A DNA stretch of 64,000 bases from an uncultured Ignavibacteriota bacterium (GCA_947085285.1 CAMTVZ010000138.1:330-64329); one strand, 5' to 3'. Positions 2,618 to 58,454 are shown, counted from the first letter of the stretch. Numbers and translations: made by a program. The notes: generated by a model not told the origin, from the letters alone.

Positions 2618-2629
2618 TTTAGATAATTC

Positions 2630-3766: not shown

Positions 3767-3777
3767 AATATCCTCAT

Positions 3778-4182
3778 CTATTCAGGAATGGTTTCAAGTT
3801 TCAGCGAAAAATCATATCGTAGCTTTTCGTCCTCAAGAATTATTTGAACCCCCACCTGAGTATCGTTATCTATAATAATCGGGCTTCTCAAATTTAATGT
3901 CGAATCCTCAAATGGTTCGCGGAGTGTTGCAACAACAAACACACTTTTTTTACCTGGCATTTTGGGTATATAGTAATCAGGAATTATTAGGTTTGGTTCG
4001 ATTAGAGGAAGACTAAAATTCGAATCCTCAATTGAAACAAGCCAACGGAAGGGTTGAGAATCTTCGTCGTCAACAACTATAAATTTTTTTAAGTTTTCAA
4101 AACCGATAATCCCTTCAGGAAAATCTACTATGTGTTTTTCTTCGAACTCAAATTCGCCAAAATGATGGTTAAAATATTTCAT
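3778..4182 (-). CDS. fliW: Flagellar assembly factor FliW.
   Basis: The N-terminus IVDFPEGIIGFENLKKFIV and the RWLVSIED segment match the FliW family. It pairs with csrA as in Bacillus. Confidence 0.85.
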   Translation of the reverse strand: MKYFNHHFGEFEFEEKHIVDFPEGIIGFENLKKFIVVDDEDSQPFRWLVSIEDSNFSLPLIEPNLIIPDYYIPKMPGKKSVFVVATLREPFEDSTLNLRSPIIIDNDTQVGVQIILEDEKLRYDFSLKLETIPE

Positions 4183-4904
4183 TATAATTTCTCCTTTAAA
4201 TTATTTTCTTGAATTAAGTTTGTAACTATTACGATATCAACTCTTCTGTTACGGGCTCGATTTTCGGGTGTAGTATTAGGAACTATAGGATGATACTCGG
4301 AATAACCTGTAACAGAAATTTTTTCGGCTGTTAGCTTGTGTTTAGTAATAAGATAATATGCAGCTACTACCGCACGTTCAACCGATAAGTGCCAGTTCGA
4401 TGGAAATCGAGGTGTATTTATTGGAACATTGTCGGTATGCCCTTCGATTCTTATTTCGTTAGGCAAAGTCTGCAAAATTTTTGCCAGTGAATCGAGAACA
4501 GTTAACGAGTTGTTTTTTAATTCTGCCTTTCCGGTTTCGAATAATAATTCTTCCATCAAATGGACTGTAACACCTCGTTCGTTGTCGGTAACCGAAACTA
4601 ATCCTGAATTCACACTTGGTGCTAATGCATTTTTTATTTCGTCCTGGATTAATTTTTTTTCAATTTGGATTTCCGACAAGATAGGTTCGCGAACATCGAA
4701 TTTGCTTGACGGTAATATTTTTTCGGAGCTGCCGAAAATGCCCCCAAGGGCTGTAACAATTTTCGAATATCTATCACTATCTATCTTCGACATTGCATAC
4801 AATATCACAAATAAACCCAGTAATAATGTTATTAGGTCGGCATAGGTTAGAAGCCAGCGTTCGGTATTGTGAGTTTCATCTTTATTTATTTTTCTCTTAA
4901 TCAC
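4182..4904 (-). CDS. Second stator B subunit (MotB/MotS/PomB-like).
   Basis: The transmembrane segment reads RWLLTYADLITLLLGLFVIL. The OmpA C-terminus reads RIEGHTDNVPI. It is translationally coupled to the upstream MotA paralog. Confidence 0.75.
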   Translation of the reverse strand: MIKRKINKDETHNTERWLLTYADLITLLLGLFVILYAMSKIDSDRYSKIVTALGGIFGSSEKILPSSKFDVREPILSEIQIEKKLIQDEIKNALAPSVNSGLVSVTDNERGVTVHLMEELLFETGKAELKNNSLTVLDSLAKILQTLPNEIRIEGHTDNVPINTPRFPSNWHLSVERAVVAAYYLITKHKLTAEKISVTGYSEYHPIVPNTTPENRARNRRVDIVIVTNLIQENNLKEKL

Positions 4905-5680
4905 AGATTATGCCCCTTTTGACTTGAAGGGATCATACTTTCGAGTTTGGAACGAATAACTGAAGGCGACTCCCCCTGTTGGATAGCTATTACACTAACA
5001 ATATACATTTCTAACATTAATTGTTCTTCTGAATGAATTTGTTTCAACTTGTCGGCAATTGGCAACCAAACCAAATTTGCCATCAACACACCCCAAAGAG
5101 TTGCAACAAAAGCTGTTGCTATGTGTCGAATCAGTTCGTTCGGATCTTCGCCAGCAGCTGCTAATGTAGCAATCAAACCCATAACCGTACCAATAATTCC
5201 CATAGTTGGCGAATATCCCCCCATCCGTTGAAACAAACCAGAACCCTGGGCATGCCTTTCGGACAGGTAGTGGACCTCCATTTCAGCAATAGAGCGTAGA
5301 TCATCGGACTCGGTTCCGTCGATTGCTAATTGTAACATTTTTTTTAAGAATGGACTTTTTATATTTTCTATCTCTTTTTCGAGAACAAGTAAGCCTTCGC
5401 GGCGAGCAATAATTGCATAACTTACTAGTTCATCAATGGTTTGCTGAGTATCAAACCTCAGCGGGCGTATTACAAGAAGAATCAACTTGCCGAACATTAT
5501 AAATTTTTGAAAAGATGTGCCTATCAAAGCTGCGGCAAATGTGCCGCCGAATACTATGATCATTGCGGGCAAAAGAATTAATGCCCCAGTGCTACCACCT
5601 TCCAACATAAAGGATCCGAATATTGAACCGAATCCCAACAACAATCCACCTATTGTCCCTATGTCGTATGTTTTTTTCAT
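4901..5680 (-). CDS. Second stator A subunit (MotA/MotP/PomA-like).
   Basis: The four-TM MotA architecture is present. The conserved C-terminal region reads GIIGTVMGLI...ATLWGVLMANL. Confidence 0.75.
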   Translation of the reverse strand: MKKTYDIGTIGGLLLGFGSIFGSFMLEGGSTGALILLPAMIIVFGGTFAAALIGTSFQKFIMFGKLILLVIRPLRFDTQQTIDELVSYAIIARREGLLVLEKEIENIKSPFLKKMLQLAIDGTESDDLRSIAEMEVHYLSERHAQGSGLFQRMGGYSPTMGIIGTVMGLIATLAAAGEDPNELIRHIATAFVATLWGVLMANLVWLPIADKLKQIHSEEQLMLEMYIVSVIAIQQGESPSVIRSKLESMIPSSQKGHNL

Positions 5681-12430: not shown

Positions 12431-13174
12431 TTATAATTTTCCAACTTCAATTGCTTTTTGTAAAGTCTCGTCCTGTGTTTGAATTGCTTTTTGATTCGAT
12501 TCGAAACTTCGGGTCATCTCAATCATCGCTACCATTTCGGCAATTCCATCCACATTCGAGGCTTCGAGATAACCTTGCCTTACAACACTCAGATTCTCAA
12601 GCGGCTCGATTGTATGTGGGATAAGATTCGAGTTAAAAAGGGATTTCCCTTCTTTCGATAATTTTGATAAGTCTGCGAAATCAACGATACGAAGTTTGGC
12701 TACAGTTTTATCGTCCAAGATTATCTCCCCCGATTCGTCGATCAATAATTTTGCTCGTTTGAGATTTTCTTTTTCTGGCAATTGAATTTTTCCTTCTTTG
12801 CCTATTACAGGATATCCTTCAGCAGTAACAAGCAAGCCAGTCGAAGTTAAATCGAAATGCCCATCGCGTGTGTATCTCAACCCGTTTGGAGTTTCAACTA
12901 CAAAAAAACCTCTCCCTTGGATCGCTACATCTAACTGATTATTAGTGTTATTTAAGCTCCCTTCACTAAAATCGACATACTGCCGGGTAACCATACCTGA
13001 GGTATCGGGTTGTCCATTCAGTTGTTCGACTCCGGTTTCCTTAAGTATTTCTGTAAAAGCCGCATCTCGTTTATAACCGGTTGAATTAATATTGGCAAGG
13101 TTATTAGCAACAATTTCCATATTCACCATTTTCGAACGCATCCCCGCACTCGAATTATAGATACTTTTTATCAT
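12431..13174 (-). CDS. flgF: Proximal rod protein FlgF.
   Basis: Rod N and C domains are present (SSAGMRSKMVNMEIVANNLANINSTGYK; MIEMTRSFESNQK). Confidence 0.8.
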   Translation of the reverse strand: MIKSIYNSSAGMRSKMVNMEIVANNLANINSTGYKRDAAFTEILKETGVEQLNGQPDTSGMVTRQYVDFSEGSLNNTNNQLDVAIQGRGFFVVETPNGLRYTRDGHFDLTSTGLLVTAEGYPVIGKEGKIQLPEKENLKRAKLLIDESGEIILDDKTVAKLRIVDFADLSKLSKEGKSLFNSNLIPHTIEPLENLSVVRQGYLEASNVDGIAEMVAMIEMTRSFESNQKAIQTQDETLQKAIEVGKL

Positions 13175-13812
13175 ATTCTTTCCTTTACTAATTTTTTGTT
13201 CCCATATTCATTAAGTTTTAGAGCTAAAATTATTTCACCATTACCGATGCCAAATTTTTTTGCTGCGTTGATTATTTGTTGCTTGCTTTTACCTTTGACC
13301 GAAATAATAATGTTGTTATAATAATTTTTTTTCGGTTGTGCTGATTGAATTTTTTGAATTATGGATAATTCACCATAACCGCGGCCCATCTGTTGAGCAA
13401 AGCGGACACCTTCATCTACAGATTCTACATCAATGGCGTTCGTGGCTACGATTGGTTCTGATGGAGGTGTTTCGACTTTTTGTTTAGTTATTGACTGAGC
13501 TTTAGTTTTCTTTTTGAAATATTTCATAACGCCGAGTAGCATAATTCCATTCAAACCCAAGACTATTAAGATTGAAATGGTAAGTAAAACGATAAAGTTG
13601 TTTGGGTTTTCGATTATATTTTGATTAGATGATTTGTCAGAAACTTTTACTGTAGAATAAGGGACAGAATATTTTTCGGCAAAAATATATTTTTTAACTG
13701 CATCCGAACCGCAGGTAGATGCAGCAAAACAAATATTGCTGATTATAAACAGAATCGTAATTACAAGCAATGGTGAAGAAAATATTTTTATGTAATTTGT
13801 TTTATTAACCAT
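13171..13812 (-). CDS. Hypothetical membrane protein with a signal/TM segment, a second TM segment, and two C-terminal helix-extension-helix-like repeats.
   Basis: The repeats are VDEGVRFAQQMGRGYGELSIIQKIQ and QIINAAKKFGIGNGEIILALKL. It is translationally coupled between the GAF kinase and flgF. I do not recognise a family. Confidence 0.4.
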   Translation of the reverse strand: MVNKTNYIKIFSSPLLVITILFIISNICFAASTCGSDAVKKYIFAEKYSVPYSTVKVSDKSSNQNIIENPNNFIVLLTISILIVLGLNGIMLLGVMKYFKKKTKAQSITKQKVETPPSEPIVATNAIDVESVDEGVRFAQQMGRGYGELSIIQKIQSAQPKKNYYNNIIISVKGKSKQQIINAAKKFGIGNGEIILALKLNEYGNKKLVKERI

Positions 13813-15181
13813 TGTTTTTCCTTGTTGGTAGAGTAATTATAAAAGTAGTTCCTTTATCAATTTCGCTATATACTTGAATGTTTCCTTTGTGTTGATTGAT
13901 AATTCTTCTTGATATAGACAAGCCTAATCCGGTACCTTGATCTTTTGTTTTTGTAGTAAAAAATGGTAAAAATACTTTTTCCAAATTCTCCACAGAAATC
14001 CCTTTACCATTATCAGAAAATTTTATTACGACAAAATTGTTAACTAATTCAGAAGAAATACAAATCAAGCCCCCCTGAGGCATTGCGTCGCGGGCATTAA
14101 TCAACAGGTTCATGAACACTAGCTGAAGGTAAGTCGACTTACCAAAAATTGCCGGAATGTTTTGAGCCAAATTTAATTCAATCTTGATATTTAAGTAGGT
14201 AAAATCTTTTCTTACTGTATCTACTGCATTGCAAATAACATCATTTATTTTGACTATTTCAAAATCATTACCATACGAATCATCGCGGCAAAAATCTAAC
14301 AAGCGTTTCGAAATTAAAACGAGTTGTTCAATTTTTTGAGAGAATAAATCGATCCAATTTTCAGGTAGCAAGCCCCGTTTAGCCAAATCGAGTTGGAACA
14401 TCAAGTATTGAACGGGGGTTCGCATTTCGTGCATGATGCTGGCGGCTAACTCGCCCACGGCGGCAAGCTTCGATACTTGAATCATTCTTTCCTGCGACGA
14501 TTTAATTTCCTCGTTTGCCGAAATTAATTCTTGGTAAGTTCTCCAATTTTCGATTCCTACGGCAGCAAAATTTGTGAGCACCGATAAAAGTTGTATATCG
14601 AAATGTGAGAAACCTTGTTGTGGTTTTTCGGTATGAATTACATAAATACCGATTGGTTCGTTACGAATAATCAATGGAACAATAACAAAATTCCTTGTAG
14701 TATTTATATTGGTCAGATGATTTAAATCTGGAATAATTACAGTCTTTTTCTCAGATAAAACCCAATCCACAATTCCCGATTCGAGCTGCAGGTTTGCTTG
14801 TTTTTCTAAACCATTCATTTCTCTTTTTAAAAATGGTTCTAATTTATTCGTTTTTCGAGTGAATAAAAAAATATTTGAATCGACAACTGGAATAACCTGC
14901 TTAGTGAGTTCAATTAATGTATCGATTAACTTTCCAGGTTCAACCGAAGTGCTGATAACGTTCGAGAGACGTTGTAGAGCAATTATTTCTTCAAACGATT
15001 GCTTCAACTCGATGTTGCTTTCAGTGCGGCGATTAATTTCGAGTTTTAAAACCTCTATAGTTTTTTCAAGTCCTTTTATGTAAGTTTCTCGACTCTCAAC
15101 AAACTGTTCGAAATTTTCAAGCACTTCGTTCGTTAAAGCATTCGGTGTTATATTTTGAAATATTTGTGTTGGATTGTTCAT
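13805..15181 (-). CDS. Cytoplasmic sensor histidine kinase with a GAF domain, HisKA and HATPase_c.
   Basis: The H-box reads ELAASIMHEMRTP. The G-boxes read DNGKGIS and GTGLGLSISRRI. There is no N-terminal TM segment. Confidence 0.8.
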   Translation of the reverse strand: MNNPTQIFQNITPNALTNEVLENFEQFVESRETYIKGLEKTIEVLKLEINRRTESNIELKQSFEEIIALQRLSNVISTSVEPGKLIDTLIELTKQVIPVVDSNIFLFTRKTNKLEPFLKREMNGLEKQANLQLESGIVDWVLSEKKTVIIPDLNHLTNINTTRNFVIVPLIIRNEPIGIYVIHTEKPQQGFSHFDIQLLSVLTNFAAVGIENWRTYQELISANEEIKSSQERMIQVSKLAAVGELAASIMHEMRTPVQYLMFQLDLAKRGLLPENWIDLFSQKIEQLVLISKRLLDFCRDDSYGNDFEIVKINDVICNAVDTVRKDFTYLNIKIELNLAQNIPAIFGKSTYLQLVFMNLLINARDAMPQGGLICISSELVNNFVVIKFSDNGKGISVENLEKVFLPFFTTKTKDQGTGLGLSISRRIINQHKGNIQVYSEIDKGTTFIITLPTRKNNG

Positions 15182-16062
15182 TGAACACTCTCTTGAACTT
15201 GCACTGTATTGTTCTTTAAATTTTCTAAGTCGGTCTTAAAAATGTTTGTATATTTTTGAATAAACAAGTCTTGCTGTTCTTGAGTCTGCAAACCAAGAAC
15301 CTGAAGAGCCTCTCTATTAAAGTCGAGTTTTCCATCAAAGATAATCCCATCACATCCAACCTCTGATGCAAAAACGTCAGCAACATGTAGTAGCACAGTC
15401 ATTTCCTGATTTCGCTCCATCTTTGTTGGGTTATGATGATTTTTAATAGCATCAACTAAAGAATCGGGGAGGTTCCACCTTTCGGCAAGCCAACCTCCAA
15501 CTTGGGCATGCGATACGCCCAAAATTTTTTCTTCGGCTTCTAAGTAAGATACATTATATTTTTTTGCCAGCTTGATTATAGCTCTGAATTCATCTGGAAA
15601 ATATTTATGCAGCACCGAGATCCCCATATCGTGCAGCAGCCCTGCAACAAATAACTCCCCCGATACTCGATAGCCCACATCGCGGGCTAAACGGCGTGCA
15701 ATAACCGCGCTCGAAATCGAATGGTCCCAATAATTTTTTGCATCAAAATACTCGTCCGATTCCTGTTGTAGTGCATTCACCATAGCCACACTCATCACAA
15801 TTTCGCGTAAAGTTTCGAACCCAAGTATTATAATTGCAAATTCGATAGTAGAAATTTTTTTTGGAAAACCATAAAAGGGAGAATTACTTATCTTCAGCAC
15901 CTTTGCTGTTAATGATTGATCGGTAGATATAACTGCGCCAAGCTGAGCGGCACTCGTCTTGGGATTGTCCAAAAGTTGGGCTATCTCCAATGCAACAGAG
16001 GACAATGCGGGCAAATGAATAATTTTTTTAACTCTCTCACGTATTTGTAAAGGGCTTAGCAT
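15178..16062 (-). CDS. HDOD domain protein.
   Basis: LPALSSVALEIAQLLDNP...VISTDQSLTAKVLKISNSPFYGF is an HDOD signature. It lies directly downstream of fliA. Confidence 0.8.
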   Translation of the reverse strand: MLSPLQIRERVKKIIHLPALSSVALEIAQLLDNPKTSAAQLGAVISTDQSLTAKVLKISNSPFYGFPKKISTIEFAIIILGFETLREIVMSVAMVNALQQESDEYFDAKNYWDHSISSAVIARRLARDVGYRVSGELFVAGLLHDMGISVLHKYFPDEFRAIIKLAKKYNVSYLEAEEKILGVSHAQVGGWLAERWNLPDSLVDAIKNHHNPTKMERNQEMTVLLHVADVFASEVGCDGIIFDGKLDFNREALQVLGLQTQEQQDLFIQKYTNIFKTDLENLKNNTVQVQESVQ

Positions 16063-24853: not shown

Positions 24854-25831
24854 TTATTCTGTAGATGTATTTGTTATACTGACTGCCAAGTGTCCATTCG
24901 ATACGCCCGGTTTTCCTTTTAATTTTAGTTTATTTCCTATCATAATGGTTACTTCGCCATTTACAGGAATTTTCGTACGTATAATATCCCCCAGCTTTAA
25001 CTCAAGTAGTTCTCGAATCGACACTGTGGATGTGGCAAGCACAACTACACTCTCTAATGTAGTTTGATACAATTGTTGTTTTACATATTCACTATGAGGT
25101 TTATTTGCTTTTTTGGCTTTCTGTTTATCTTCTATATCGCTGTTTAAATTAGAAAGCATTTTATTTATAGCTGCAATCGGATAAACGATATTCAAATTGA
25201 AATTATGTTTCTCGAAAATTATTTCGAAGGATGTAATAAGCATTACTTCGGTTGGAAGCGATATCTGAAGATATTCGGAGTCGGTTTCAAATCGATTCAT
25301 CGAGAAAGTGCTGATACTGTGTTTTTCCCAAGCGCACTGAAGTTCGTTAAGAATTTTTTCGGCAACTTTTTTGAAAACCATTTGTTCGAGAAGTGTTAAT
25401 GTGCGGGATTTAAAGTTAGCCTCCTGTCGACCGCCTAAGAGACTTGCGACAATAAATAGAGCAAAACTTGAGTTAAACTCAATAATTGCGGAAGCATCAA
25501 ATTGGTTGATTGTAAAAACATAAGCAGCAACCGGGTTAGGAACGGTGAGGAGGTATTCAGAAAGATAAAGCGAATTTGTTCCGAGTGGATTTATTGAAAT
25601 CTGTTTTTCTAAATTTGAAAAGAAATATTTTTCGACATTGACCGCAAATTTTTTATTAACAGTCTGTAATACTCGAAGCTGATTTTCAGGAAGTTGCTGC
25701 GGACTTTGGAAATCGAATTTCTTCGCTTCTATATTTTTACCTTGCTTATCAATATTACTGCTTACTACGCTAACAGATGCCGCCTCAGTAAGCAAAACAT
25801 CTATTTCCTGTTGTGTTAATAATTTCGACAT
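24854..25831 (-). CDS. fliM: Switch protein FliM.
   Basis: The N-terminus reads LTQQEIDVLL. Length is 325 aa. The C-terminal FliN-like domain is present. Confidence 0.85.
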   Translation of the reverse strand: MSKLLTQQEIDVLLTEAASVSVVSSNIDKQGKNIEAKKFDFQSPQQLPENQLRVLQTVNKKFAVNVEKYFFSNLEKQISINPLGTNSLYLSEYLLTVPNPVAAYVFTINQFDASAIIEFNSSFALFIVASLLGGRQEANFKSRTLTLLEQMVFKKVAEKILNELQCAWEKHSISTFSMNRFETDSEYLQISLPTEVMLITSFEIIFEKHNFNLNIVYPIAAINKMLSNLNSDIEDKQKAKKANKPHSEYVKQQLYQTTLESVVVLATSTVSIRELLELKLGDIIRTKIPVNGEVTIMIGNKLKLKGKPGVSNGHLAVSITNTSTE

Positions 25832-25842
25832 TTGAAAAGTAA

Positions 25843-26358
25843 TTACTGAATTATGAATTTGCTGAAATACACATTCGTTGGTTTCCCGAGTTTCAATATC
25901 TTTGCTATCTCTGCTGATATTTCTTTTCGTATCGCATCACGTTTCGACATATCTGCTAATTCCTCTAAATGTTTGCTTCCTAAAACTGTGTTCAAAATAT
26001 CTCTCACAACAATTTCTTTATTTTGAATTTCACGCAACACTTCGGTCGAAGGGACTTCAACACCAATTGTTGTCAAAAGAAATTTCGCTCCACCTGACGA
26101 AGCGGGGTTAATGATTAAATCTTTTAATACAAACATTTGTAGATCCACAGGTGGGGCATGCTCAGTTTCTAAAGGCAATGTCTCTGTCTTTTGCGATACT
26201 ACTGCGGGAGCAATTAATTTTGCCACTAAAAAATAGACGACCACTATCTGCACAATCAAAATAGGGAGGCCAATAATTAATATTTTTTTGAACAAATCTG
26301 CTTTTTTAGGAGATTCGTTTGTTGGGTTTGATTCAATTGTTGCTGTTTCGTTTTCCAT
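25843..26358 (-). CDS. fliL: FliL.
   Basis: A single-TM basal-body protein. It is the first gene after a 202-nt intergenic region. Confidence 0.75.
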   Translation of the reverse strand: MENETATIESNPTNESPKKADLFKKILIIGLPILIVQIVVVYFLVAKLIAPAVVSQKTETLPLETEHAPPVDLQMFVLKDLIINPASSGGAKFLLTTIGVEVPSTEVLREIQNKEIVVRDILNTVLGSKHLEELADMSKRDAIRKEISAEIAKILKLGKPTNVYFSKFIIQ

Positions 26359-26380: not shown

Positions 26381-26396
26381 TTCAATTCTTGTGCCA
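26381..26396 (-). promoter_or_regulatory. Putative sigma-54 promoter of the fliL-fliM-...-flhA operon (TGGCAC-N5-TTGAA).
   Basis: The minus strand reads TGGCACAAGAATTGAA, about 22 nt upstream of the fliL ATG. It has the same box and the same -12 variant as upstream of flgB. The leader would be very short. Confidence 0.4.
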
Positions 26397-26560: not shown

Positions 26561-27787
26561 TTATGGAATGGAATATTTTACACGTATAGGCTCTTTGATC
26601 GAGTCGCTCTTTTGCCATTGAAGAATCATTTTAATAAAAGTCTCGGTTAATATCGAGTATGAGCGAATTAGACACAGCCCATTTCTTGTTACGATATCCT
26701 GCATTAAAATCATTCCTGCCTGTAGCTCTTCAACGGTAACGTATTTTTCAACTTCATTCTTTTGTTGTTGGCTTTGCTCTGTTCCGAAAAATAAGTTCAA
26801 TAATTCTGGGTCATAAATATCGTTAGTGCTTACTAATTTTTTGTATAAATCACTCCCCTTATTATTCAAAGATATAAGTTTATCCATATCAATTAAGATA
26901 CGAAGCAACCGTGAGCCAAGAGGTAATTCGTTTCGACATACTTTTTCGAGTACCGGTTCCCCCTTTCCACTGTAATCTTTTTTACTAAAACGAATAATTC
27001 GTGCTACATTTTTAAATTTTGGTATGTTCTCAATCAGAGCCGCACCAAGAAGCTGGTGATTTTTTGCTTCAGCAAACCTTTCGATAGCCGATAGTCCCTC
27101 TTTGTTAAGTATAACTTGTATCCATGCTGGCAAAACAGCCACGCCAATATTGAATAAATCGAAAGCACTTTCAATCTCCCAACGTTCTAATTCACTTAAG
27201 GGGGGCAATTTTTTCAAAAAAACATTCCCTAATTGTCGTACTCGCATTGTTTGAGCATTTGCCTCGGGATTGATATAGACAATTAAGTCGCTCAGCAAGC
27301 GAACAGTACCACCAACTGTTCCACTGAGAAGCTCGTTAAGTTGAGAGTTTTTCGACTTAAGTACATTCAGTAAATATTTGTTTTCTTGTAATAGATTGTA
27401 TTTTTCAAGAGAATCTCTGAGTAGTTTTTTTAGGTCGTTATCATTCCATGGTTTATTTATATAATGACTGATTTTACCGATATTGATTGCCCGCAGTGTG
27501 TCGTCGAAATCGGCATACCCTGTAATCATTATTCGGATTGTTTCAGGGGAATATTCTGACACGGTTTGTAGTACTTTAACTCCATCTACTACCGGCATTC
27601 TCTGGTCTGAAAATACTACTGCGAAAGGGCCATGTAGATTGAGATAATCCTCTATTCTCTCAGATTTATCAAGAAGATGAATGTCGCAGTTTTCGTTGCG
27701 CATAAGGGAGCGAAAAGCCGAAAGAAGATTAGGTTCGTCATCAACATATAGAATTTTTCGATTTTGAGTATAAGTATCAGTTAGCAT
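26561..27787 (-). CDS. Response regulator with a receiver domain and a highly degenerate HD-GYP-like C-terminal domain.
   Basis: The REC domain reads ILYVDDEPN...FSDQRMPVVDG. The C-terminus reads DYSGKGEP where DGSGYP would be expected. No HD dyad is present. Confidence 0.6.
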   Translation of the reverse strand: MLTDTYTQNRKILYVDDEPNLLSAFRSLMRNENCDIHLLDKSERIEDYLNLHGPFAVVFSDQRMPVVDGVKVLQTVSEYSPETIRIMITGYADFDDTLRAINIGKISHYINKPWNDNDLKKLLRDSLEKYNLLQENKYLLNVLKSKNSQLNELLSGTVGGTVRLLSDLIVYINPEANAQTMRVRQLGNVFLKKLPPLSELERWEIESAFDLFNIGVAVLPAWIQVILNKEGLSAIERFAEAKNHQLLGAALIENIPKFKNVARIIRFSKKDYSGKGEPVLEKVCRNELPLGSRLLRILIDMDKLISLNNKGSDLYKKLVSTNDIYDPELLNLFFGTEQSQQQKNEVEKYVTVEELQAGMILMQDIVTRNGLCLIRSYSILTETFIKMILQWQKSDSIKEPIRVKYSIP

Positions 27788-27790
27788 AAA

Positions 27791-28984
27791 TTAAACCTTG
27801 ATTTTATTTAGCCATTTTTCTATAACATCCTGATTTTCGGCAGCATCGTTCAATTCTAACATTTCAGCGATCTGCATAATTTTAGAAATTTCGTTTCCAT
27901 TTTGATTAATATGATGGGATACTACAGCATCGATAATTTCTTCAGGATAATTCCATAGACGTAAAAGCTCGGCACTTATTTGTTCATGAGAAATTGGAAA
28001 AATTTTTTTGTCGGCTTCTGACAGTTTTATTTTTTCAGATTTTTGGATTGAAAGCATTTTTTCGTACTTCTCAAAATCTGAACAGATTCTGACTAACAAC
28101 CCAATATCTTGTAGCATCGATGCCACGTAAACTGTTTGTGAATCAACGGGGGTGCTCCAATGGGCCGATACCTCTTTCGCAAACAATGCACGTTTTAAAG
28201 CATTATCCCAAAATATTTCGACCTGTTTTTGAACTTCATCTGGTAAATCTTTCATCAAATTCTGATACATATCGATCGCTAAGGCGAGAATTTGTACGTA
28301 CGAGGTCCCTATAAAAATGATAGCATCCCTAATGCTTGAAATATGTTTATAAGAAGCGTAATAAACAGAATTAGCAATTTGTAATACTTTAGCTATAAGT
28401 ACCGGGTTTTGCCTGACCTCTTCGACAAGTTCGTTGAGGGAGCTTTCTTTTTTATTTAAAAAAGAATGGAATCGTTCGTTAAACTTTTTTGAGGGGGGTA
28501 AATTATTGAACTTCAATAAAACATCCGACAACTTTTCGCTACGTAGTTCGTTTTGCAGTTTTATCGTTTTCGAAATGTAGTTCTTTAGCGTTGCATCGTC
28601 CCACGGTTTTAAAAAGTATTGATTAGCCAATCCATTACTCAACGCATCTAAAATTATTTCTTTTTCTTCATAACCACTTACTATTACACGAATAGCATCG
28701 GGGCAAATTTCTTTTGCCACTCTTAACAAATCAAGCCCCCCTATTTCAGGCATTCGCATGTCGGTTAGAATTATATCCACATTATAATTTTCGAACTGAG
28801 AAATTGCTTCTTTGGCAGAAGTAAATTGTAAAATGTTATAACCCTCATGTCGAAACAACCGACTTAATGCCGAAAGTATGGCTTGCTCGTCATCTATAAA
28901 AAATAATGTTGTTTGAACATTAAACGATAATTTTTGAATTTCTTTTTTTTCAGAATTAAACATTTTTATTCTATAGGCTCCCAT
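27791..28984 (-). CDS. Response regulator with a receiver domain and an HDOD domain.
   Basis: The REC domain reads LFFIDDEQAI...LTDMRMPEIGG. The HDOD domain reads NELVEEVRQNPVLIAKVLQIANSVYYAS. Confidence 0.75.
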   Translation of the reverse strand: MGAYRIKMFNSEKKEIQKLSFNVQTTLFFIDDEQAILSALSRLFRHEGYNILQFTSAKEAISQFENYNVDIILTDMRMPEIGGLDLLRVAKEICPDAIRVIVSGYEEKEIILDALSNGLANQYFLKPWDDATLKNYISKTIKLQNELRSEKLSDVLLKFNNLPPSKKFNERFHSFLNKKESSLNELVEEVRQNPVLIAKVLQIANSVYYASYKHISSIRDAIIFIGTSYVQILALAIDMYQNLMKDLPDEVQKQVEIFWDNALKRALFAKEVSAHWSTPVDSQTVYVASMLQDIGLLVRICSDFEKYEKMLSIQKSEKIKLSEADKKIFPISHEQISAELLRLWNYPEEIIDAVVSHHINQNGNEISKIMQIAEMLELNDAAENQDVIEKWLNKIKV

Positions 28985-31760
28985 TTGTGTGTGGGAGGGT
29001 TATTCGGAATTTTGTCCCTTTATTTACTTCACTTTCAACAGTGAGTGTGCCTTTATGTTTTTGTATAATTGTCTTTGATATCCATAACCCGAGCCCTGTA
29101 CCTTTGCCAACAGCTTTAGTAGTAAAAAATGGATCGAAAATTTTATTCAAATGTTCGATAGCAATCCCACTTCCGTTATCGGAAATTTCAATAATAGCGT
29201 TCTTATCTTCAGCAAAAGTTTTGATTTTAATAAATCCTTTTTCGGGTATAGCTTGAGCAGCATTCACTAATAAATTAGTAAAGACTTGCTTAAGTTCGCC
29301 CGGATTGCACTTTATGAGAGGAAGAGAACTATATTCTTTTTTGATGTCAGCTTTATATTTTATTTCATTCCATACTAATGTTAAAGTATCCTCAATAGCA
29401 TCATGAATATTACTATCAATAAATTTATCGTCACCTTTATGCGAAAACACCCGTAGCTTATCGACTATAGTCTTAATTCTTTGTGTTCCTTCTCTTGTCT
29501 CTGCAATAAGTTTATTAAAATCTTGCACAATAAAAGTAATATCAACTCGGCGTTCCAAGTCTCGTAGATCTTGCAAGAGTGCCTGTACTTCTGGTCCCTC
29601 ATTCACAAACATACCAAGAATTTGCCATTTCCTTAAAACATTCGTCAGATCTTCGATATATTCCCCAAAACGATTCAGATTGCTCGAAACAAATGCGAGG
29701 GGGTTGTTAATCTCGTGAGCAATTCCGGCTGTTAACTGTCCGATTGACGCCATTTTTTCTGATTGTATTAGGTGTTCCTGCATCTCTTTAATATTCTCGA
29801 TCATACTTTCTAATTCTTGGTTTCGCTTTAGTAGTTCCAATTCGAGAGCTTTTCGTTTCGAGATATCTCGAACAACTGCCTGGATTATTTTTTTCCCATC
29901 TAATTCCATCGCAGTTAGGAGGACTTCTGAAGGGAAATCGGTTCCATCTTTACGCCGATGTACCCATTCAAAACAGTTATTTCCTTTTTCGAGAGCGTAA
30001 TTAATTTGCTGATTTGCAAGTTGTTTTGAGTCGATATTTCCAAATTGCATCGGAGGCGAAACTTCTGCAAGATTTTGTTTACAAAATTCTTCTTTCGAGG
30101 TATAACCAAACATAGTCAGAGTTGCGTTGTTGCAATCAAAAAAACCATTTTCATCCAGAAGCATTACTGCGTTGCCGGTCGATTCATAAAGAGTACGGAA
30201 TTTTATTTCAGAATTTCTTATTGCTTCTTCTGCCATCATCTGCTCAGTTATATTTTCTATTATTCCCTCAAAAAATAATATTTCACCCGTGTCGTTCAGC
30301 TGAACCCGTTCATTCAAATTAACATATATAACGCTCCCATCTTTTTTCTTTAATTTGATTTTAAGATTCTCAGTTTTTTTTCTTTCTTTAGTTCTTTCAA
30401 GTACACTCTTCCGATCGGCTGGGTCGTAATATAGTTGCGTTGGAATATCAATACTCATTAAATCTTCTGCCGATTTATATCCTAACATTTTAACAAGTGC
30501 CCGATTTACTTTTATAAACTTACCATCTTGACTCGTTCGGAATATCCCATGGACAGCGTTTTCAAATATCGACCTGTAATCTTCTTCCGATTGTTTAAGT
30601 GCCTCTTCAATTTTCTTTCTTTCAGTAATATCTTCCCACAAACTCTCAAAAAACAGGATGTTGCCAGCCTCGTCTTCTACAATTCTTTTATCTAATTTCA
30701 CGTTTATAAGACTGCCATCTTTTTTTTTCAACACTAGTTCATAATTTTTTATACTTTTCTTCTCTATTAATTGGGAATGTAGATTAGCTTGGTCTGATGG
30801 ATTTAAATATATTTGAGTAGTAATATCGAGACTCATCAACTCTTCTTCCGACTCATATCCTAACATTTTAACCAAGGCTGGATTTACTTTGATGAACTTA
30901 CCATCTGCACTTGTTCGAGCAATTCCTTGAATAGCATTTTCAAAAATTGTTCTATAATCTCGTTCCGATTGTTTTAACTCCTCTTCGATTTTTTTTCGAG
31001 CTGTAATATCTTGCATAATACAAACAAAACCTACAAATTCTTTTTTTGAGTTACGTCTTGAAGAAATCGAGGTTTCGAAAAAACGAGTTCCATTCAACGA
31101 TTTTAGATTCCATTCGAACATTACATTCGGTTCGATCTTAGCCCGTTCCGAGGCAATCTCGAAAAGGTCGCCATTCTTTTCGCCTAATACTTCATATACA
31201 GTTTTGTTTTTATAACGGTTAAAATCTATTCCGTATATGTGTGTCATTTGTCCGTATGCTTCTTTAAAACGTAAATCTTCGTCAAGTGTAAAAACTATGC
31301 CGCTGATGGAGTCGAGGATGGTTCGCATTAATTCCTCGTTTTCGCGCAAAGTAATTTCAGCTTTTTCCTTTTGATCGATGAAGTTTTTATTTGAGATGGC
31401 TTGTTCGATAGCAGGAATGAAACGAGTAAAATTAGTTTTCATGATGTAATCGGTGGCACCGGCTTTGATCAATCCAACTGCCAGTTCTTCGTCCAAAGCC
31501 CCGGTAACAAAGATAAACGGAACAGAAGGGGCGTGCTGTTTAGCAAGTTGAAGTGCGAGCATCCCATCGAAATCGGGAATCGAATAATCCGAAAGAATAA
31601 CATCGGGTTTAAAATTTTCGAGTGCATCTAAAAAACTGTCACGCGTAGAAACTAACTTAGAAGTAAATTGCAAATGGTTAGTTTCGAAAAATTCATTATA
31701 AAGATTGAAGAATTCTTCATCATCTTCTATAATTAAAATGTGTATTTTTTCTTTCGACAC
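28971..31760 (-). CDS. Hybrid sensor kinase: N-terminal receiver, three or four PAS domains, HisKA, HATPase_c. It appears to start at a GTG codon.
   Basis: The REC domain reads ILIIEDDEE...LSDYSIPDFDG. PAS blocks repeat as QDITARKKIEE and EDITERKKIEE. The H-box reads AHEINNPLAF. The G-box reads GTGLGLWISKTI. Confidence 0.85.
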   Translation of the reverse strand: MSKEKIHILIIEDDEEFFNLYNEFFETNHLQFTSKLVSTRDSFLDALENFKPDVILSDYSIPDFDGMLALQLAKQHAPSVPFIFVTGALDEELAVGLIKAGATDYIMKTNFTRFIPAIEQAISNKNFIDQKEKAEITLRENEELMRTILDSISGIVFTLDEDLRFKEAYGQMTHIYGIDFNRYKNKTVYEVLGEKNGDLFEIASERAKIEPNVMFEWNLKSLNGTRFFETSISSRRNSKKEFVGFVCIMQDITARKKIEEELKQSERDYRTIFENAIQGIARTSADGKFIKVNPALVKMLGYESEEELMSLDITTQIYLNPSDQANLHSQLIEKKSIKNYELVLKKKDGSLINVKLDKRIVEDEAGNILFFESLWEDITERKKIEEALKQSEEDYRSIFENAVHGIFRTSQDGKFIKVNRALVKMLGYKSAEDLMSIDIPTQLYYDPADRKSVLERTKERKKTENLKIKLKKKDGSVIYVNLNERVQLNDTGEILFFEGIIENITEQMMAEEAIRNSEIKFRTLYESTGNAVMLLDENGFFDCNNATLTMFGYTSKEEFCKQNLAEVSPPMQFGNIDSKQLANQQINYALEKGNNCFEWVHRRKDGTDFPSEVLLTAMELDGKKIIQAVVRDISKRKALELELLKRNQELESMIENIKEMQEHLIQSEKMASIGQLTAGIAHEINNPLAFVSSNLNRFGEYIEDLTNVLRKWQILGMFVNEGPEVQALLQDLRDLERRVDITFIVQDFNKLIAETREGTQRIKTIVDKLRVFSHKGDDKFIDSNIHDAIEDTLTLVWNEIKYKADIKKEYSSLPLIKCNPGELKQVFTNLLVNAAQAIPEKGFIKIKTFAEDKNAIIEISDNGSGIAIEHLNKIFDPFFTTKAVGKGTGLGLWISKTIIQKHKGTLTVESEVNKGTKFRITLPHTNGSL

Positions 31761-31814: not shown

Positions 31815-31846
31815 TTGCTGCGAATTCTTTTCAGAATCCGCAGCAA
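31815..31846 (-). other. Long perfect stem-loop immediately 3' of flgE.
   Basis: The sequence is ttgctgcgaattct-tttc-agaatccgcagcaa, about 13 bp with one mismatch. No adjacent U-tract is present. Confidence 0.5.
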
Positions 31847-31864
31847 CAAAACACATCAACAATT

Positions 31865-33130
31865 TTAACGTTTAATATTTACAACCTCAGTTAAAAATTC
31901 ATCACTCGTAGTAATAACTCGTGCGTTAGCCTGAAAACCTCGTTGAGCAGTAATCATCTTTGTAAATTCATCTGCTAAATCTACGTTCGATTGTTCGAGC
32001 CCGCCTGAGACTAAAATTGAATTTGAAGCGCCCCCTGGATTAAAAATTACCGGCATACCGGCATTACTTCCAATTTCGTACATATTATCCCCGATTCGGA
32101 GTAATCCTGATGGATTGTTGAATTCAGCCAGCATAATTTGACCTAAAGCTTGAACAGTGCCGTTTGAGAATGAGCCAAGAATTTTTCCGTTCTGATCAAT
32201 TGAAATATCGTTCAACGATCCTGCAGCATAACCATCCTGTTCCGTTGGCGACACGTTGGATAGTCCGTTGGTTTGAGTTATACCTGAAAAAATTCCTGGC
32301 GTACCAGCATTAAGAGAAATCGCTAAAGGTGAAGCACCGTTATTAGGATTAAGATTCAAGGCCGAAGCACCTCCAGCGTATGTAAATGTTTGTAAAGTTC
32401 CATCCGAATTGAAAGTAGCAACACCACTTCCGCCGGATGTAATAGTAACAGGAGCTTGGCTATTGGCAGTCCAGGTCCATTCGTTTGCGTTCACAGTCTT
32501 TGTGAAAGTTACTGTAACTGCATGTCTGTTTCCTAATGAATCGAAAACAGTTAACGAAGTGTTAACCGAAGTGCCGGTTTGGGCTGCCGAATCTAGGTTT
32601 CCAGATAGTTTGATATTGCTCGTAGCGCGGGCTGGGGACTTGGTATCGAAAGCAATCACTAAGTTTTCCAACCTGTTGCCGGTGGGAATGTTACCTGTTG
32701 CATCGGCTAACTTACCTTGAAGTATAGCACCTGTGCCGGGAGATACTATTCTACCCATTGCATCAATTTTGAAACCGCCGTCGCGGGTATAATAATTTTT
32801 TCCGTTTTTATTAACTACAAAAAAACCGGTCCCTTGAATTGCAAGGTCGGTTGCCTGATCGGTCGATTCGATATTGCCTTGATGGAAGAGGGTATCGACA
32901 CGAAGGGTAGCCATGCCTAAACCGACTTGAATTGGGTTCGAGCCACCGTTTTCGTTAGTAGGGAGCGAGCCAGCCCTTAAAGTTTGTGCAAACATTTCGC
33001 CGAAGGTTGCCCTCCCCGCTTTAAAACCGATTGTATTAATATTCGCAATATTATTACCTATAACATCCATCATTAATTGATGATTACGAAGTCCTGAGAC
33101 TCCAGCTGATAGTGATCTTAAAAATGCCAT
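31865..33130 (-). CDS. flgE: Flagellar hook protein FlgE.
   Basis: The N-terminus reads MAFLRSLSAGVSGLRNHQLMMDVIGNNIANINTIGFK. The C-terminus reads TKMITAQRGFQANARVI. Confidence 0.9.
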   Translation of the reverse strand: MAFLRSLSAGVSGLRNHQLMMDVIGNNIANINTIGFKAGRATFGEMFAQTLRAGSLPTNENGGSNPIQVGLGMATLRVDTLFHQGNIESTDQATDLAIQGTGFFVVNKNGKNYYTRDGGFKIDAMGRIVSPGTGAILQGKLADATGNIPTGNRLENLVIAFDTKSPARATSNIKLSGNLDSAAQTGTSVNTSLTVFDSLGNRHAVTVTFTKTVNANEWTWTANSQAPVTITSGGSGVATFNSDGTLQTFTYAGGASALNLNPNNGASPLAISLNAGTPGIFSGITQTNGLSNVSPTEQDGYAAGSLNDISIDQNGKILGSFSNGTVQALGQIMLAEFNNPSGLLRIGDNMYEIGSNAGMPVIFNPGGASNSILVSGGLEQSNVDLADEFTKMITAQRGFQANARVITTSDEFLTEVVNIKR

Positions 33131-42831: not shown

Positions 42832-42847
42832 TTCAAACGATGTGCCA
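42832..42847 (-). promoter_or_regulatory. Putative sigma-54 promoter of the flgB operon (TGGCAC-N5-TTGAA).
   Basis: The minus strand reads TGGCACATCGTTTGAA, about 28 nt upstream of the first ATG (42804). The -12 element reads TTGA, not TTGC. A sigma-54 activator is encoded immediately upstream. Confidence 0.5.
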
Positions 42848-51860: not shown

Positions 51861-54374
51861 TTACTTTTTCTTTAGTGAAAATTTTAAGGGTTGATCTAAA
51901 TCTTTTTCAAAATTTATATTCTTTACACCATCAACGAGTGTGTAACCATCCAAGCGAACTTCAATTTTGTGCAAACCACTCCTCACTTTAATTTGAGCCG
52001 GTGTTTGTTTGCCCTCGGATTTATCGTCCACAAATATTTCTGCACGTAGCGGGCTTCCTGCATCATCGAAAGCAGTAATTGTTAAGGCACACATTTTATC
52101 AAAGTCGGCTAATATTTCGAGTGATTCTTCGGCTTTAATATTTATTGATTTTTCCCAAGTTCCGTATTTTGGGTGGGTAATTTTTATTTTACGTGTTCCG
52201 GAAGGAACATCTACATTAACCGGAACATCTGTATCTGATTTTTTTAACTGGTCGTCTACGTAAATCGAACCGTAAGGTTTGGCACGGAGTTTCAACTTAC
52301 CTATCATCGGTACTAAATTCTTACTGATAGTATATGTTTGCTTTTGTAATATGTTGAGAGTTGTGTCGAAATCCTTAAATCCATCCTTTTGCATTTTAAA
52401 TCTATGTCTGCCCGATGCAACCTTTTGGTTCATAAGCGGTGTAACACCAATCTCTTTTCCATCCATAATTATGGGAACACCCACTGGCTGCGAAGTTATA
52501 TTAATAAATCCGGCTGGAGATAATTTGACATCGATGGTTACCGGTTTATTGCCGATTATTCGAACAACCTGTTCGTAATCTTCAAAGTCGGGTCCAGCAA
52601 TGATTTTAATTTTGTGATAACCAGGCTGAATGAGACTATCTCTGTATGGGGTTTGCCCAATTTCCATTTCACCAATAAATACTTTAGCCCCCGGCGGCTC
52701 CGAATTGATTATCAATCTTTCAACCATAGCAGCTGCGCCAGTAGGTGCAAGATTATATCGGAGGTTTTTATTTTCTCCCTGCTTTAAATCAATCTCTTCT
52801 GTTTTTTCTCCATAAATTGGATGGATTACAAGAATGCGATGTTTACCTATTGAACGTTCGATGCTCGCAAGTTGAAAAGGTGGAATTGTATCTTTATCAA
52901 TAACCACGATAGCATCTGGAGGCATTACTGAAATAGACAATATCCCTGATGGTATTAAATTAAAATTTAATTGATAGTGCTGCCCATTGGTGGTAACGAT
53001 AGAAGTTTCGGCTGCGAAGAAATCTTTCTTGTGAACTTTTATTAATAATTTACCCACATCAACGGTGAATTCTTCTAAGGGGGTGTTTTTTCCAGTTGGT
53101 GCGTCGTTTACTGTAACTACGGCTCCGGGGGGTTGGGTGAAAATTGAAATTGTAGTTTTATCGGGTGAAAAAACAAAATACCACAGACCGATTAATAAGG
53201 CTGCAATTCCGAATACTGCAACCCTAATAAACTTTTTAGGGCTTGATAAGAGGGATTCGATTTTTTTACCAAACCAAAAAATAATTGCAGTTGCTAATCC
53301 GGTAAGCAACGAACTTGCAACTTTTTCTTTAGTCTGCTTGGACATTTGGATCCCAACTCCTCGTTTAGGGGCTGACCTTGCAACTGTTTCTTGCCCTGAT
53401 GCTTTTACTCTTATTGTTGTACGTTTTTTTAGAATTTGTGGAATAACAACATTCCATCGAACATCTTTAACATTCGATTTAAAAGTAAGGATTGAAATAA
53501 TTGATTTTAAAAAGTTCTCAATTGAAGAGGGACGTTTGTGAGGGTCAGTCATCAGAGCATTTTCGAGGACTGAGGAAATTCCTGACCACGGCTCGCCTTC
53601 GTTGCGGAAGGAGAGGTCGTATCCTTCTAATAATCTGAATGTTAATGCAGCAATCGAGTAAATATCGGATTGTTCGTTAACCGAATCGCCGCGTTTGTCC
53701 TCGGGCGAATAGTAGCCTTGCTTGATTTGTATGGCTTCGTCGGAAGGTAGATTTTTAAACGGCACTCCAATGTTGGCAAGAGTAACTAATAAATTTCCCT
53801 CATCGTCTAAACTTAGTATGATGTTGCCGGGGGCTAAATCTCTGATCCAAATTCTTTGACTATGAGCGGCTGAAACTGCCTTTGCAACTTGGTTAATTAT
53901 TTTGATTGTGTCGTTGGGCGAGAGGCGGTTTTGTTTATCGAGCACTTCGGCTAATGAAACACCTTGTATTAAATCGGTAACAATATACGGGCGGGGCTCA
54001 TCGTCAACATATGTGGTACCGAAACGAATATTTTGAAGAAATAGATGTCCGGGAAAACGTTCTGACAGGTATTTTAACATTTCAGCTTTAAACTGAAATT
54101 GTTGTGAAACGTTCTCGTTGTAAATTAGCTTTTTGTGTAATACACGGATTGCTACTAATTTATTTTTTTCGGTATCGAATGCCTCGTATGTAGTGTTAAA
54201 ATCGCCCCTGACGAAAAACGAACGCAATTCGTAATTTCCGAAGTATCGCCGAGTTAAAAGATTGAATTCGTCGGTAGAAAGTTTAACCGTAACTTTTCGA
54301 CGTTTATAAAAAATTATTCCTGCCACTAAAACGATTAAAATTCCGAATATTAATATAACTATCCAGATATCCAA
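51861..54374 (-). CDS. Transmembrane Ser/Thr-kinase-like protein with four or five C-terminal PEGA repeats. It is probably a pseudokinase.
   Basis: The N-terminal TM segment precedes a kinase fold in which the catalytic motifs are altered: VAIK reads VAIRVL, HRDLKPxN reads IRDLAPGN, DFG reads NIG. PEGA-like repeats include PPGAVVTVNDAPTG, PPGAKVFIGEMEIGQTPY and SQPVGVPIIMDGKEIGVTPL. Confidence 0.75.
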   Translation of the reverse strand: MDIWIVILIFGILIVLVAGIIFYKRRKVTVKLSTDEFNLLTRRYFGNYELRSFFVRGDFNTTYEAFDTEKNKLVAIRVLHKKLIYNENVSQQFQFKAEMLKYLSERFPGHLFLQNIRFGTTYVDDEPRPYIVTDLIQGVSLAEVLDKQNRLSPNDTIKIINQVAKAVSAAHSQRIWIRDLAPGNIILSLDDEGNLLVTLANIGVPFKNLPSDEAIQIKQGYYSPEDKRGDSVNEQSDIYSIAALTFRLLEGYDLSFRNEGEPWSGISSVLENALMTDPHKRPSSIENFLKSIISILTFKSNVKDVRWNVVIPQILKKRTTIRVKASGQETVARSAPKRGVGIQMSKQTKEKVASSLLTGLATAIIFWFGKKIESLLSSPKKFIRVAVFGIAALLIGLWYFVFSPDKTTISIFTQPPGAVVTVNDAPTGKNTPLEEFTVDVGKLLIKVHKKDFFAAETSIVTTNGQHYQLNFNLIPSGILSISVMPPDAIVVIDKDTIPPFQLASIERSIGKHRILVIHPIYGEKTEEIDLKQGENKNLRYNLAPTGAAAMVERLIINSEPPGAKVFIGEMEIGQTPYRDSLIQPGYHKIKIIAGPDFEDYEQVVRIIGNKPVTIDVKLSPAGFINITSQPVGVPIIMDGKEIGVTPLMNQKVASGRHRFKMQKDGFKDFDTTLNILQKQTYTISKNLVPMIGKLKLRAKPYGSIYVDDQLKKSDTDVPVNVDVPSGTRKIKITHPKYGTWEKSINIKAEESLEILADFDKMCALTITAFDDAGSPLRAEIFVDDKSEGKQTPAQIKVRSGLHKIEVRLDGYTLVDGVKNINFEKDLDQPLKFSLKKK

Positions 54375-54449
54375 GATTTAAATTCTTTCTAATATTTTTT
54401 GAAAAGTTACATTGTAATTTAACATTTTTTAAGGTATTGTCAAATAAAA

Positions 54450-54884
54450 TTAGTACGACTTAGGACTCGATGATAAAGGTTCGATACAGGGTAAATTATC
54501 AACGATCCCCTCGAGGCTATGACTTTGCTGTCTTGCAACACAGTTATCGTAGTCGAACCATTCTAACCGAGAGCGGATTTCAGGATCTTTACCAGCTTCA
54601 ATCGCTTCTTCTATATCTTCCTTCAATTCTCTTACAAGGCGGCGGAAGTCTTCAAAATGCCGTCTTTCGTGGGCTACCACTTCTGCGGCTTCAGTATTGT
54701 TAAGCTCCTCACTGATTAAAATTCGTGTCAAAAATGAAACTGTCAGGATCTCATCCTGCAAACTAGCTTCCCACGTATAATCGAAACAACCTCTATCTTC
54801 ATCAGGCATTATGCTTTGAATCTCGCTTATGCTCACCTTTTCGGGTGAGGGGGCTGTTGTGTGTCCGCTAAAATGTACTTGCAT
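54450..54884 (-). CDS. Hypothetical acidic protein with an HExxH motif, possibly zincin-like (DUF4157-like).
   Basis: The sequence reads VVAHERRHFEDF. It lies downstream of the contractile-system genes. The family call is an inference only. Confidence 0.4.
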   Translation of the reverse strand: MQVHFSGHTTAPSPEKVSISEIQSIMPDEDRGCFDYTWEASLQDEILTVSFLTRILISEELNNTEAAEVVAHERRHFEDFRRLVRELKEDIEEAIEAGKDPEIRSRLEWFDYDNCVARQQSHSLEGIVDNLPCIEPLSSSPKSY

Positions 54885-55082
54885 GAATATAAGTTCTCAA
54901 TTTATTTTATAACAGGTCGACTTTCTTTTAGCGTATGTAGAATCGGCTGCGGTGTAAGCCATTCTTTAACTGGGAATTCTCCTTTGTCCTCGATGTTGAA
55001 TAACATTGATTATTGATGAGAATAGAACTGCACAAAATTTGCAAAAAGAAAATCGAGAATTTAAAAATATTTATTTTATGTT

Positions 55083-57123: not shown

Positions 57124-57132
57124 TTAAAATAA

Positions 57133-58440: not shown

Positions 58441-58454
58441 ATTTAGATTTTAGA

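Follow-up and report, generated by a model that had tools for sequence, protein, structure and literature searches.

The flagellar gene cluster carried by a 64-kb stretch of DNA from an uncultured Ignavibacteriota bacterium (GCA_947085285.1, CAMTVZ010000138.1:330-64329; this whole stretch is called the window) raises the question of what three signalling genes are doing between flgE, which codes for the hook protein, and fliL. They code for a sensor kinase and for two response regulators whose receiver (REC) domains are followed by an HDOD domain and by a degenerate HD-GYP domain (pseudo-HD-GYP), respectively. The three genes are a pre-existing cassette that is found in several phyla with interchangeable sensor parts. 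The reading favoured here, with somewhat better than even confidence, is that they form a self-contained two-component module in which one kinase would drive two pseudo-enzyme regulators acting by protein contacts, with a likely flagellar target. Every component is of a known kind and no new class is involved. The genes and their boundaries are as follows (aa, amino acids):

28971-31760, minus strand: kinase gene, 929 aa, GTG start (translation, Pfam, NCBIfam)
27791-28984, minus strand: REC-HDOD gene, 397 aa as annotated, likely start Met8 at 28963 (translation, Pfam)
26561-27787, minus strand: REC-pseudoHD-GYP gene, 408 aa (translation, Pfam, AlphaFold model of the C-terminal half)
31865-33130, minus strand: flgE, hook protein, upstream boundary of the insertion (Pfam, NCBIfam)
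25843-26358, minus strand: fliL, downstream boundary, first gene of the fliL-fliR-flhBAFG unit (Pfam, NCBIfam)

The whole region is on the minus strand and the gene order is fliK, flgD, a TIGR02530-family gene, flgE, kinase, REC-HDOD, REC-pseudoHD-GYP, fliL, fliM, fliN, fliO, fliP, fliQ, fliR and flhB. The G+C content is uniform over the junctions of the cassette with the flagellar genes.

Gene content and spread of the cassette

The sequence-only reading of the window had placed three inserted regulators between flgE and fliL. All three open reading frames (ORFs) are found and their domains are confirmed by Pfam and NCBIfam; the insertion is borne out by about 30 related metagenome loci in which flgE directly precedes fliL. 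The phospho-acceptor residues (DD, D, T/S and K) are readable in the translations of all three receivers, as is the H-box His of the kinase. The domains are distributed as follows, by residue:

Kinase: REC 8-109; four PAS domains, about 149-634; HisKA 674-737 (H-box AGIAHEINNPL); HATPase 820-925
REC-HDOD protein: REC 29-137; HDOD 162-358
408-aa protein: REC 12-123; coiled-coil linker; pseudo-HD-GYP domain, about 150-340; C-terminal beta/alpha domain, about 343-408

The 929-aa protein is predicted to be a cytoplasmic sensor histidine kinase. Pfam reports HATPase_c at 93 bits (2e-26), and HisKA at 26.2 bits, which is 0.7 under the family cut-off of 26.9, the H-box AHEINNPL being nonetheless readable. 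Two independent assemblies (L163 and L164) support the GTG start, since their orthologues are also exactly 929 aa long. Its non-synonymous divergence (dN) is 0.16-0.21, with saturated synonymous divergence (dS). The earlier description as a hybrid kinase holds for the REC, HisKA and HATPase domains and for the GTG start, while the number of PAS domains, left at three or four, is settled at four.

The REC-HDOD protein had been described as a receiver fused to an HDOD domain of non-catalytic appearance, which the profiles and the alignment uphold. HDOD scores 139.4 bits (1.4e-40; cut-off 22.9) and spans 194 of the 196 profile positions; Response_reg scores 74 bits (1e-20). The position of the HD dyad reads QD in the window protein, and HD is found in none of 47 cassette orthologues, which have QD, LD, SD or other pairs instead; the downstream HH is kept in 39 of them. 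The annotated ORF overlaps the kinase gene by 14 nucleotides. Orthologues of 383-384 aa start past the kinase stop codon, without such an overlap, so that the true start is probably Met8. A further HDOD protein (294 aa), which stands alone and has its HD dyad intact, is encoded between fliA and flgF (13171-16062, minus strand) together with a GAF-HisKA-HATPase kinase (458 aa) and a 213-aa protein without Pfam match.

A genome scan with the 408-aa protein yielded 80 loci, 58 of which have enough upstream sequence for counts of gene order. The protein has hundreds of full-length homologues, mostly in Ignavibacteria. The order kinase, REC-HDOD, REC-pseudoHD-GYP on one strand is found in 36 of the 58 loci, and the REC-HDOD gene is directly upstream of the pseudo-HD-GYP gene in 43. 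Cassettes are present in Ignavibacteriota, Alphaproteobacteria, Nitrospirota, Eisenbacteria and Armatimonadota. The alphaproteobacterial carriers are Pelagibius litoralis DSM 21314, Methyloligellaceae and Roseibium, the kinase gene being downstream in the latter. Proteins from distant phyla have the same three-domain architecture with degeneracies of their own, HD being replaced by HG, AA or SH and GYP by GFP, for instance. A profile search with the C-terminal half collects 417 clusters (50% identity) when E is at most 1e-30 and 3,721 when it is at most 1e-10; most clusters of this wider family hold proteins close to 385 aa in length, in which SQ typically stands for HD and YQEK for HHE. The sensor part of the kinase varies from a receiver with four PAS domains in the window to CHASE8 with PAS in one genome and many PAS domains in another. 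The cross-phylum cassette pairs one pseudo-enzyme of each type under a single kinase, suggesting that the two work together. One 806-aa protein (P0122, a singleton on a 5.6-kb contig) carries REC-HDOD and REC-pseudoHD-GYP with the C-terminal domain in one chain; it could be genuine or the product of a sequencing error and is weak evidence. The stand-alone cassettes with the other kinase sensor parts have unrelated housekeeping genes as neighbours. The view of the three genes as a local invention does not hold, the cassette being widespread and usually unlinked to flagellar genes.

The flgE-fliL junction and the history of the insertion

A metagenome scan with FlgE provided 80 loci, in which adjacency was judged where both flgE and fliL are visible. 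The two genes are neighbours in about 30 of these loci, separated by some 450-600 bp of non-coding DNA. The full cassette is found between them in four assemblies, namely the window, the genome locus L002 and two assemblies from other samples, whose cassette proteins are 70-75% identical to those of the window. The flgE-cassette-fliL order is thereby seen in samples SRR3731039, SRR22388165 and SRR22387906 and in L002. The junction itself carries the first two of the following elements, the third being a copy at a distance:

31815-31846, minus strand: hairpin with a 13-bp stem, about 20 nucleotides after the flgE stop codon and before the kinase start, without T tract, -35.7 kcal/mol
26382-26396, minus strand: sigma-54-type -24/-12 motif TGGCACAAGAATTGA, past the cassette and beginning 38 nucleotides ahead of the fliL start
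42833-42847, minus strand: exact second copy of the sigma-54-type motif, upstream of flgB

In 18 of 19 folded loci (the exception is L128) flgE is followed by a strong hairpin rich in G+C, whether the cassette is present or not. Its role could be that of a terminator, of an attenuator or of an element stabilising the mRNA; a terminator scan did not flag it because it has no T run. The motif TGGCAY-N5-TTGM is found 38-105 nucleotides upstream of fliL in 32 of 33 Ignavibacteria-like loci, with an estimated chance occurrence of about 0.005 per locus. A sigma-70 promoter scan returned 24 sites for 24.0 expected. Upstream of flgB is also a pair of genes coding a FleS/FleR-like kinase and a sigma-54 activator; a database look-up of the activator protein gave no exact record. 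The sigma-54-type motifs before fliL and flgB imply that flgE|fliL is an operon boundary and that the flagellar operons are sigma-54-driven. The junction is thus established in these Ignavibacteria as a boundary with a conserved sigma-54-type promoter. The cassette, bracketed by the flgE hairpin and by the motif before fliL, is wedged between two transcription units. Its transcripts may start at a promoter of its own or come from polymerase passing the hairpin. It had been supposed to lie inside the structural operon; its place is the gap between two operons.

The gap has a history. At L087 an intact REC-HDOD gene (positions 3767-5041, 424 aa) stands alone between flgE and fliL, the kinase and pseudo-HD-GYP genes being gone. 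At L123 (11333-11977) remnants follow one another in cassette order: first the PAS/HisKA junction of the kinase, then the C-terminus of HDOD, then the N-terminal part of the third gene. They are a snapshot of a cassette being deleted. A sensitive search of the flgE-fliL gaps of loci without insert detected remnants in L123 only. In a neighbour-joining tree of FlgE, which is a tree of one protein, the cassette loci, L087 and L123 fall in one clade with two cassette-free loci. Since all carrier and remnant loci share this clade, a single insertion with later decay explains these sequences most simply. The module would have relocated once, in one Ignavibacteria subclade, to the space that separates the fliL unit from the flgB-flgE unit, and would have decayed partly or wholly in some descendants. 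Where the genes are intact they are under purifying selection: dN is 0.16-0.26 with saturated dS, comparable to fliM. The saturation of dS leaves most dN/dS ratios uncomputable, the data being dN and three ratios, which are below about 0.1.

Placement next to flagellar genes has arisen more than at this site. In four other genomes, BMS3Abin03 included, the cassette is found at the opposite edge of the cluster, between the sigma-54 activator gene and flgB. Note that at L155 (17903-20253), which belongs to a more distant lineage (FlgE 46% identical), a receiver-kinase gene and a receiver gene directly follow fliP and fliQ, the contig ending within the second gene; the locus may represent a third case of linkage to the flagellum.

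Whether these positions reveal a flagellar target has to be weighed against the possibility that they are incidental, the cassette serving a non-flagellar trait such as biofilm formation or redox physiology and having landed in a permissive gap between operons. Several observations speak for such an accident or weigh against the favoured reading. Most cassettes are stand-alone operons amid unrelated genes: for most of those of Ignavibacteria and for all of those of other phyla no flagellar gene lies within 10 kb. The site of insertion is a non-coding gap between two transcription units. The cassette is lost or decayed there in close relatives that keep their flagellar genes (L082, L083, L087 and L123), from which it follows that it is dispensable for building the flagellum. 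It also counts against the favoured reading that the 64-kb window encodes no GGDEF or EAL partner. On the other side, two different flagellar gaps (flgE|fliL and activator|flgB) are occupied in two sets of genomes, whereas the cluster represents about 1-2% of a genome; these two independent placements suggest a flagellar target. So does the presence in the cluster of further HD-type genes, which code for a second REC-pseudoHD-GYP paralogue (401 aa) and for the stand-alone HDOD protein after fliA, and so does the literature linking HDOD proteins to motility. The arrangement is, moreover, kept under purifying selection across species that are 25-30% diverged in protein sequence. An incidental position is considered unlikely, without being far-fetched, and a flagellar target of the cassette, read from gene position, is plausible.

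The output domain of the 408-aa protein

Pfam assigns Response_reg (4e-17) and HD_5 (5e-14) to the 408-aa protein. In its receiver D16, D17, D61 and K112 are invariant among 35 homologues and T89 is found in at least 90% of them. Two features make up its output half:

26870-27298, minus strand: degenerate HD-GYP-fold core (Pfam HD_5, residues 164-306; profile alignments to 5z7c and 9rbz, family alignment, fold matches)
26564-26761, minus strand: C-terminal domain of about 65 aa, motif L-x-x-G-M-x-L...D-I/V...G...L (alignment and model)

The core, compared with the HD-GYP motifs as defined by Galperin and Chou (bioRxiv 10.1101/2021.11.05.467447), has, by alignment and model, the HD-GYP fold without the catalytic apparatus. 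The protein contains DYSGKGEP, has no HD dipeptide anywhere and a single His in its output half. An alignment of the C-terminal half was built from 18 homologues and its profile was searched against the PDB; the search had been run with the single 408-aa sequence, which returned receiver domains only, and was redone with this half. The only significant match of the profile is V-cGAP3 of V. cholerae (5Z7C), in which the stronger stretch is the degenerate N-terminal HD-GYP domain (HWNGQGRPE) and the weaker one the active domain. In the latter, AHHEKLDGTGYP aligns to LqkkdfdGeGeP of the family, where the window protein reads F-S-K-K-D-Y-S-G-K-G-E-P. DvhD (9RBZ) is a marginal match (E about 1) whose LSQVGK, at the HD-x-G-K position, is aligned with LFNLG.

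These alignments allow each motif to be followed. The HD position, SQ in 9rbz, corresponds to F212-N213 in the window protein, and HD is absent from all 35 homologues. HHE is replaced by S-K-K. GYP is replaced by GEP, the family showing GEP, GSP, GRP, GAP, GVP, GIP and GDP, and GYP in 0 of the 35 close homologues. The first metal-binding His (H189 in PmGH) corresponds to Q in AAxQTxRV, a residue placed by motif order and not by alignment. The Lys after HD is replaced in the family by a hydrophobic Val, Leu or Ile, according to the alignment with DvhD. The core retains H244, K229-x-G231 (the equivalent of KPG) and the D of ILIDMD. The proposal of a receiver with a strongly degenerate HD-GYP domain devoid of the HD dyad withstands this inspection, HD, HHE and GYP being all lost.

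The AlphaFold model of the C-terminal half (predicted local distance difference test, pLDDT, 86) gives a concordant picture. The top matches of this model in Foldseek, about 11 PDB entries, are all HD-GYP proteins with a target-normalised TM-score of up to 0.69; the leaders are DvhD, PmGH, PA4781, V-cGAP3 and Bd1817 (E from 4e-5 to 1e-2, 163-204 alignment columns). A fold search with the full-length protein was dominated by receivers and PorX and was redone with the C-terminal half.

The pseudo-HD-GYP core is followed by a third domain that the sequence-only reading, correct for the REC and HD-GYP-like parts, had overlooked. It is a separate beta/alpha unit in the AlphaFold model, with an invariant G358 and a nearly invariant Met, and it recurs in the 401-aa paralogue encoded in the window as well as in orthologues of other phyla. 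When five C-terminal domains were scanned in isolation against Pfam (E<=5), no family came up consistently, the one match being a weak one to Arc_PepC. A likeness to the beta part of DUF3391 could not be confirmed and is not claimed. The 401-aa paralogue is itself a second REC and degenerate HD-GYP protein (640-1845, minus strand); its gene closes the flagellar cluster, behind the second motAB pair. HD is replaced in it by RE and HHE by QLE, the latter a substitution shared with HnoD, and its GYP is intact.

A non-catalytic domain of this fold could serve as a receptor. The outputs of the cassette would then be cyclic-dinucleotide receptors, the pseudo-HD-GYP domain in the manner of DvhD and the HDOD domain in that of SadB, and would couple cyclic di-GMP (c-di-GMP) and phosphorylation to flagellar function. 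DvhD of D. vulgaris (PDB 9RBZ, 9RC0) is a degenerate HD-GYP protein with SQ for HD that binds c-di-GMP without metal (PMC13090378), and binding of c-di-GMP is reported also for the YbaK-HDOD protein SadB (PMC6543031). DvhD is among the best fold matches and the best structural match of the pseudo-HD-GYP domain; it has likewise its HD dyad and double His replaced. In addition, the K-x-G equivalent of KPG is retained, and the SQ that DvhD has in place of HD is frequent in the wider family. DvhD differs in being a membrane dCache-PAS protein and not a response regulator. Above all, the residues that hold c-di-GMP are retained in DvhD (GYP Tyr, Lys after HD, R-x-Y-R), whereas the DvhD contacts Y621 (GYP Tyr) and K582 (Lys after HD) align to Glu and to a hydrophobic residue, respectively, in the window family. 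Tyr is found at the GYP position in 0 of 35 close homologues. No R-x-Y-[KR] is visible in the family consensus after the ILIDLD helix, a region that is outside any alignment to a solved structure. By these alignments, the pseudo-HD-GYP family appears devoid of the canonical c-di-GMP contacts provided by the GYP Tyr and by the Lys after HD, which are used in PmGH and DvhD. A role as c-di-GMP receptors is thus improbable, and the c-di-GMP-sensing output that the earlier reading had put forward is weakened accordingly.

Neighbourhood, working model and related systems

That the locus is an assembly chimera or a set of decaying pseudogenes is hardly credible: its source is a metagenome-assembled contig and the related locus L123 has decayed remnants at the flgE-fliL site, whereas the same order in assemblies of different samples and in L002, the full-length ORFs with all receiver and kinase motifs intact, the low dN/dS ratios and the uniform G+C content across the junctions speak for an authentic and intact cassette. 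Chimerism proper, of which absence from all relatives had been named as the sign, is excluded because four independent assemblies share the arrangement.

Other genes of the window complete the picture of the cluster. Two motA-motB pairs (1850-3505 and 4182-5680, minus strand) flank fliW and csrA, and the motor may have two stator sets. FliM (24854-25831, minus strand) starts with MSKLLTQQEIDVLL, which we take to resemble the peptide that binds phosphorylated CheY. No member of the CheA, CheW and CheY families is seen among the annotated window genes, several small ORFs being outside the scan. Upstream of the flagellin genes (51861-63021, minus strand) the window encodes a Ser/Thr protein kinase that has four PEGA domains, and it carries VgrG-like and TssG-like genes, similar to parts of type VI secretion systems or phage baseplates. 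A PADLOC analysis gave weak receiver-type matches only and hence no link to a defence system.

In the two-component module favoured above, the PAS domains of the kinase would detect a signal from inside the cell, and its own N-terminal receiver may gate it. The kinase would phosphorylate both regulators, as their adjacency and conserved co-occurrence lead us to infer. The phosphorylated regulators would act by protein-protein contacts, neither hydrolysing c-di-GMP nor binding it in the canonical way, as is thought for HnoD and NosR. Their target in the lineage of the window is likely to be flagellar assembly or rotation. A more specific version, in which the REC-HDOD and REC-pseudoHD-GYP pair would be a dedicated phosphorylation-gated regulator of the flagellum that binds the switch or stator, the sigma-54 activator, FlhF or FlhG, is distinctly doubtful. 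If true, it would explain why the cassette was parked twice in gaps of the flagellar cluster, and it would offer a first mechanistic handle on HDOD, whose function has been unknown for about two decades despite its recurrence in motility screens. HDOD and degenerate HD-GYP domains are abundant and their mode of action is largely unknown; the cassette offers a testable lead, and its repeated capture by the flagellar cluster points to where targets may be sought. The question can be approached experimentally because the carriers include cultured strains, namely Pelagibius litoralis DSM 21314 and several Roseibium strains.

The searched literature contains no description of a REC-HDOD/REC-pseudoHD-GYP pairing under one kinase, of the C-terminal domain, or of capture by a flagellar locus followed by decay. 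The parts of the cassette do have known counterparts. The RpfC/RpfG system likewise pairs a sensor kinase with a receiver-HD-GYP regulator and bears on motility and biofilm decisions; catalytic members of the RpfG family keep HD, HHE and GYP, of which the 408-aa protein keeps none. The core of this protein matches the degenerate N-terminal pseudo-HD-GYP domain of V-cGAP3. In V-cGAP3 that domain regulates an active HD-GYP domain of the same chain, whereas the window protein has no active domain.

The REC-HDOD protein has the same two-domain architecture as GsmR of X. campestris and is likewise without the HDOD active-site His. GsmR is reported to lack this His and to have no phosphodiesterase activity (PMC4114195), and to affect the expression of flagellum synthesis genes (cited in PMC4114195, PMC11004494). 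GsmR is not described in a cassette of a kinase and two regulators, nor in a flagellar cluster. It is one of several HDOD proteins that affect flagellar motility, the others being Cj0248, SadB, PFL_0554, PFL_5871 and PSPTO_4229 (PMC11004494, PMC11813219, PMC6543031).

The closest parallels for the 408-aa protein are NosR and HnoD. The NCBIfam family NosR (NF053512) is its best match, at 238 bits (E 1.9e-70), which does not reach the family cut-off of 400; its sequence marks it as a relative of the NosR family and not a member. NosR of B. pseudomallei (BPSS1648), whose motifs read HG-GTP, receives its phosphate from NosK, the neighbouring kinase (PMC12570481), and HnoD of S. oneidensis (SO_2541) inhibits the EAL protein HnoB (bioRxiv 10.1101/2021.11.05.467447). 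The window system differs from both in having a REC-HDOD partner, no known EAL partner and no NosP/FIST or H-NOX gene nearby: no NosP/FIST gene is found among the annotated neighbours of the cassette, whose adjacent kinase has PAS sensors of its own. It differs also by the conserved C-terminal domain and, from NosR, by GEP in place of GTP. What the three proteins have in common is a receiver followed by an HD-GYP fold without metal ligands, with a kinase encoded next door, which for NosR and HnoD is the kinase that phosphorylates them. NosR and HnoD are proposed or shown to act without hydrolysis of c-di-GMP, and by analogy with them the regulators of the cassette may convey the signal of their kinase through protein contacts.

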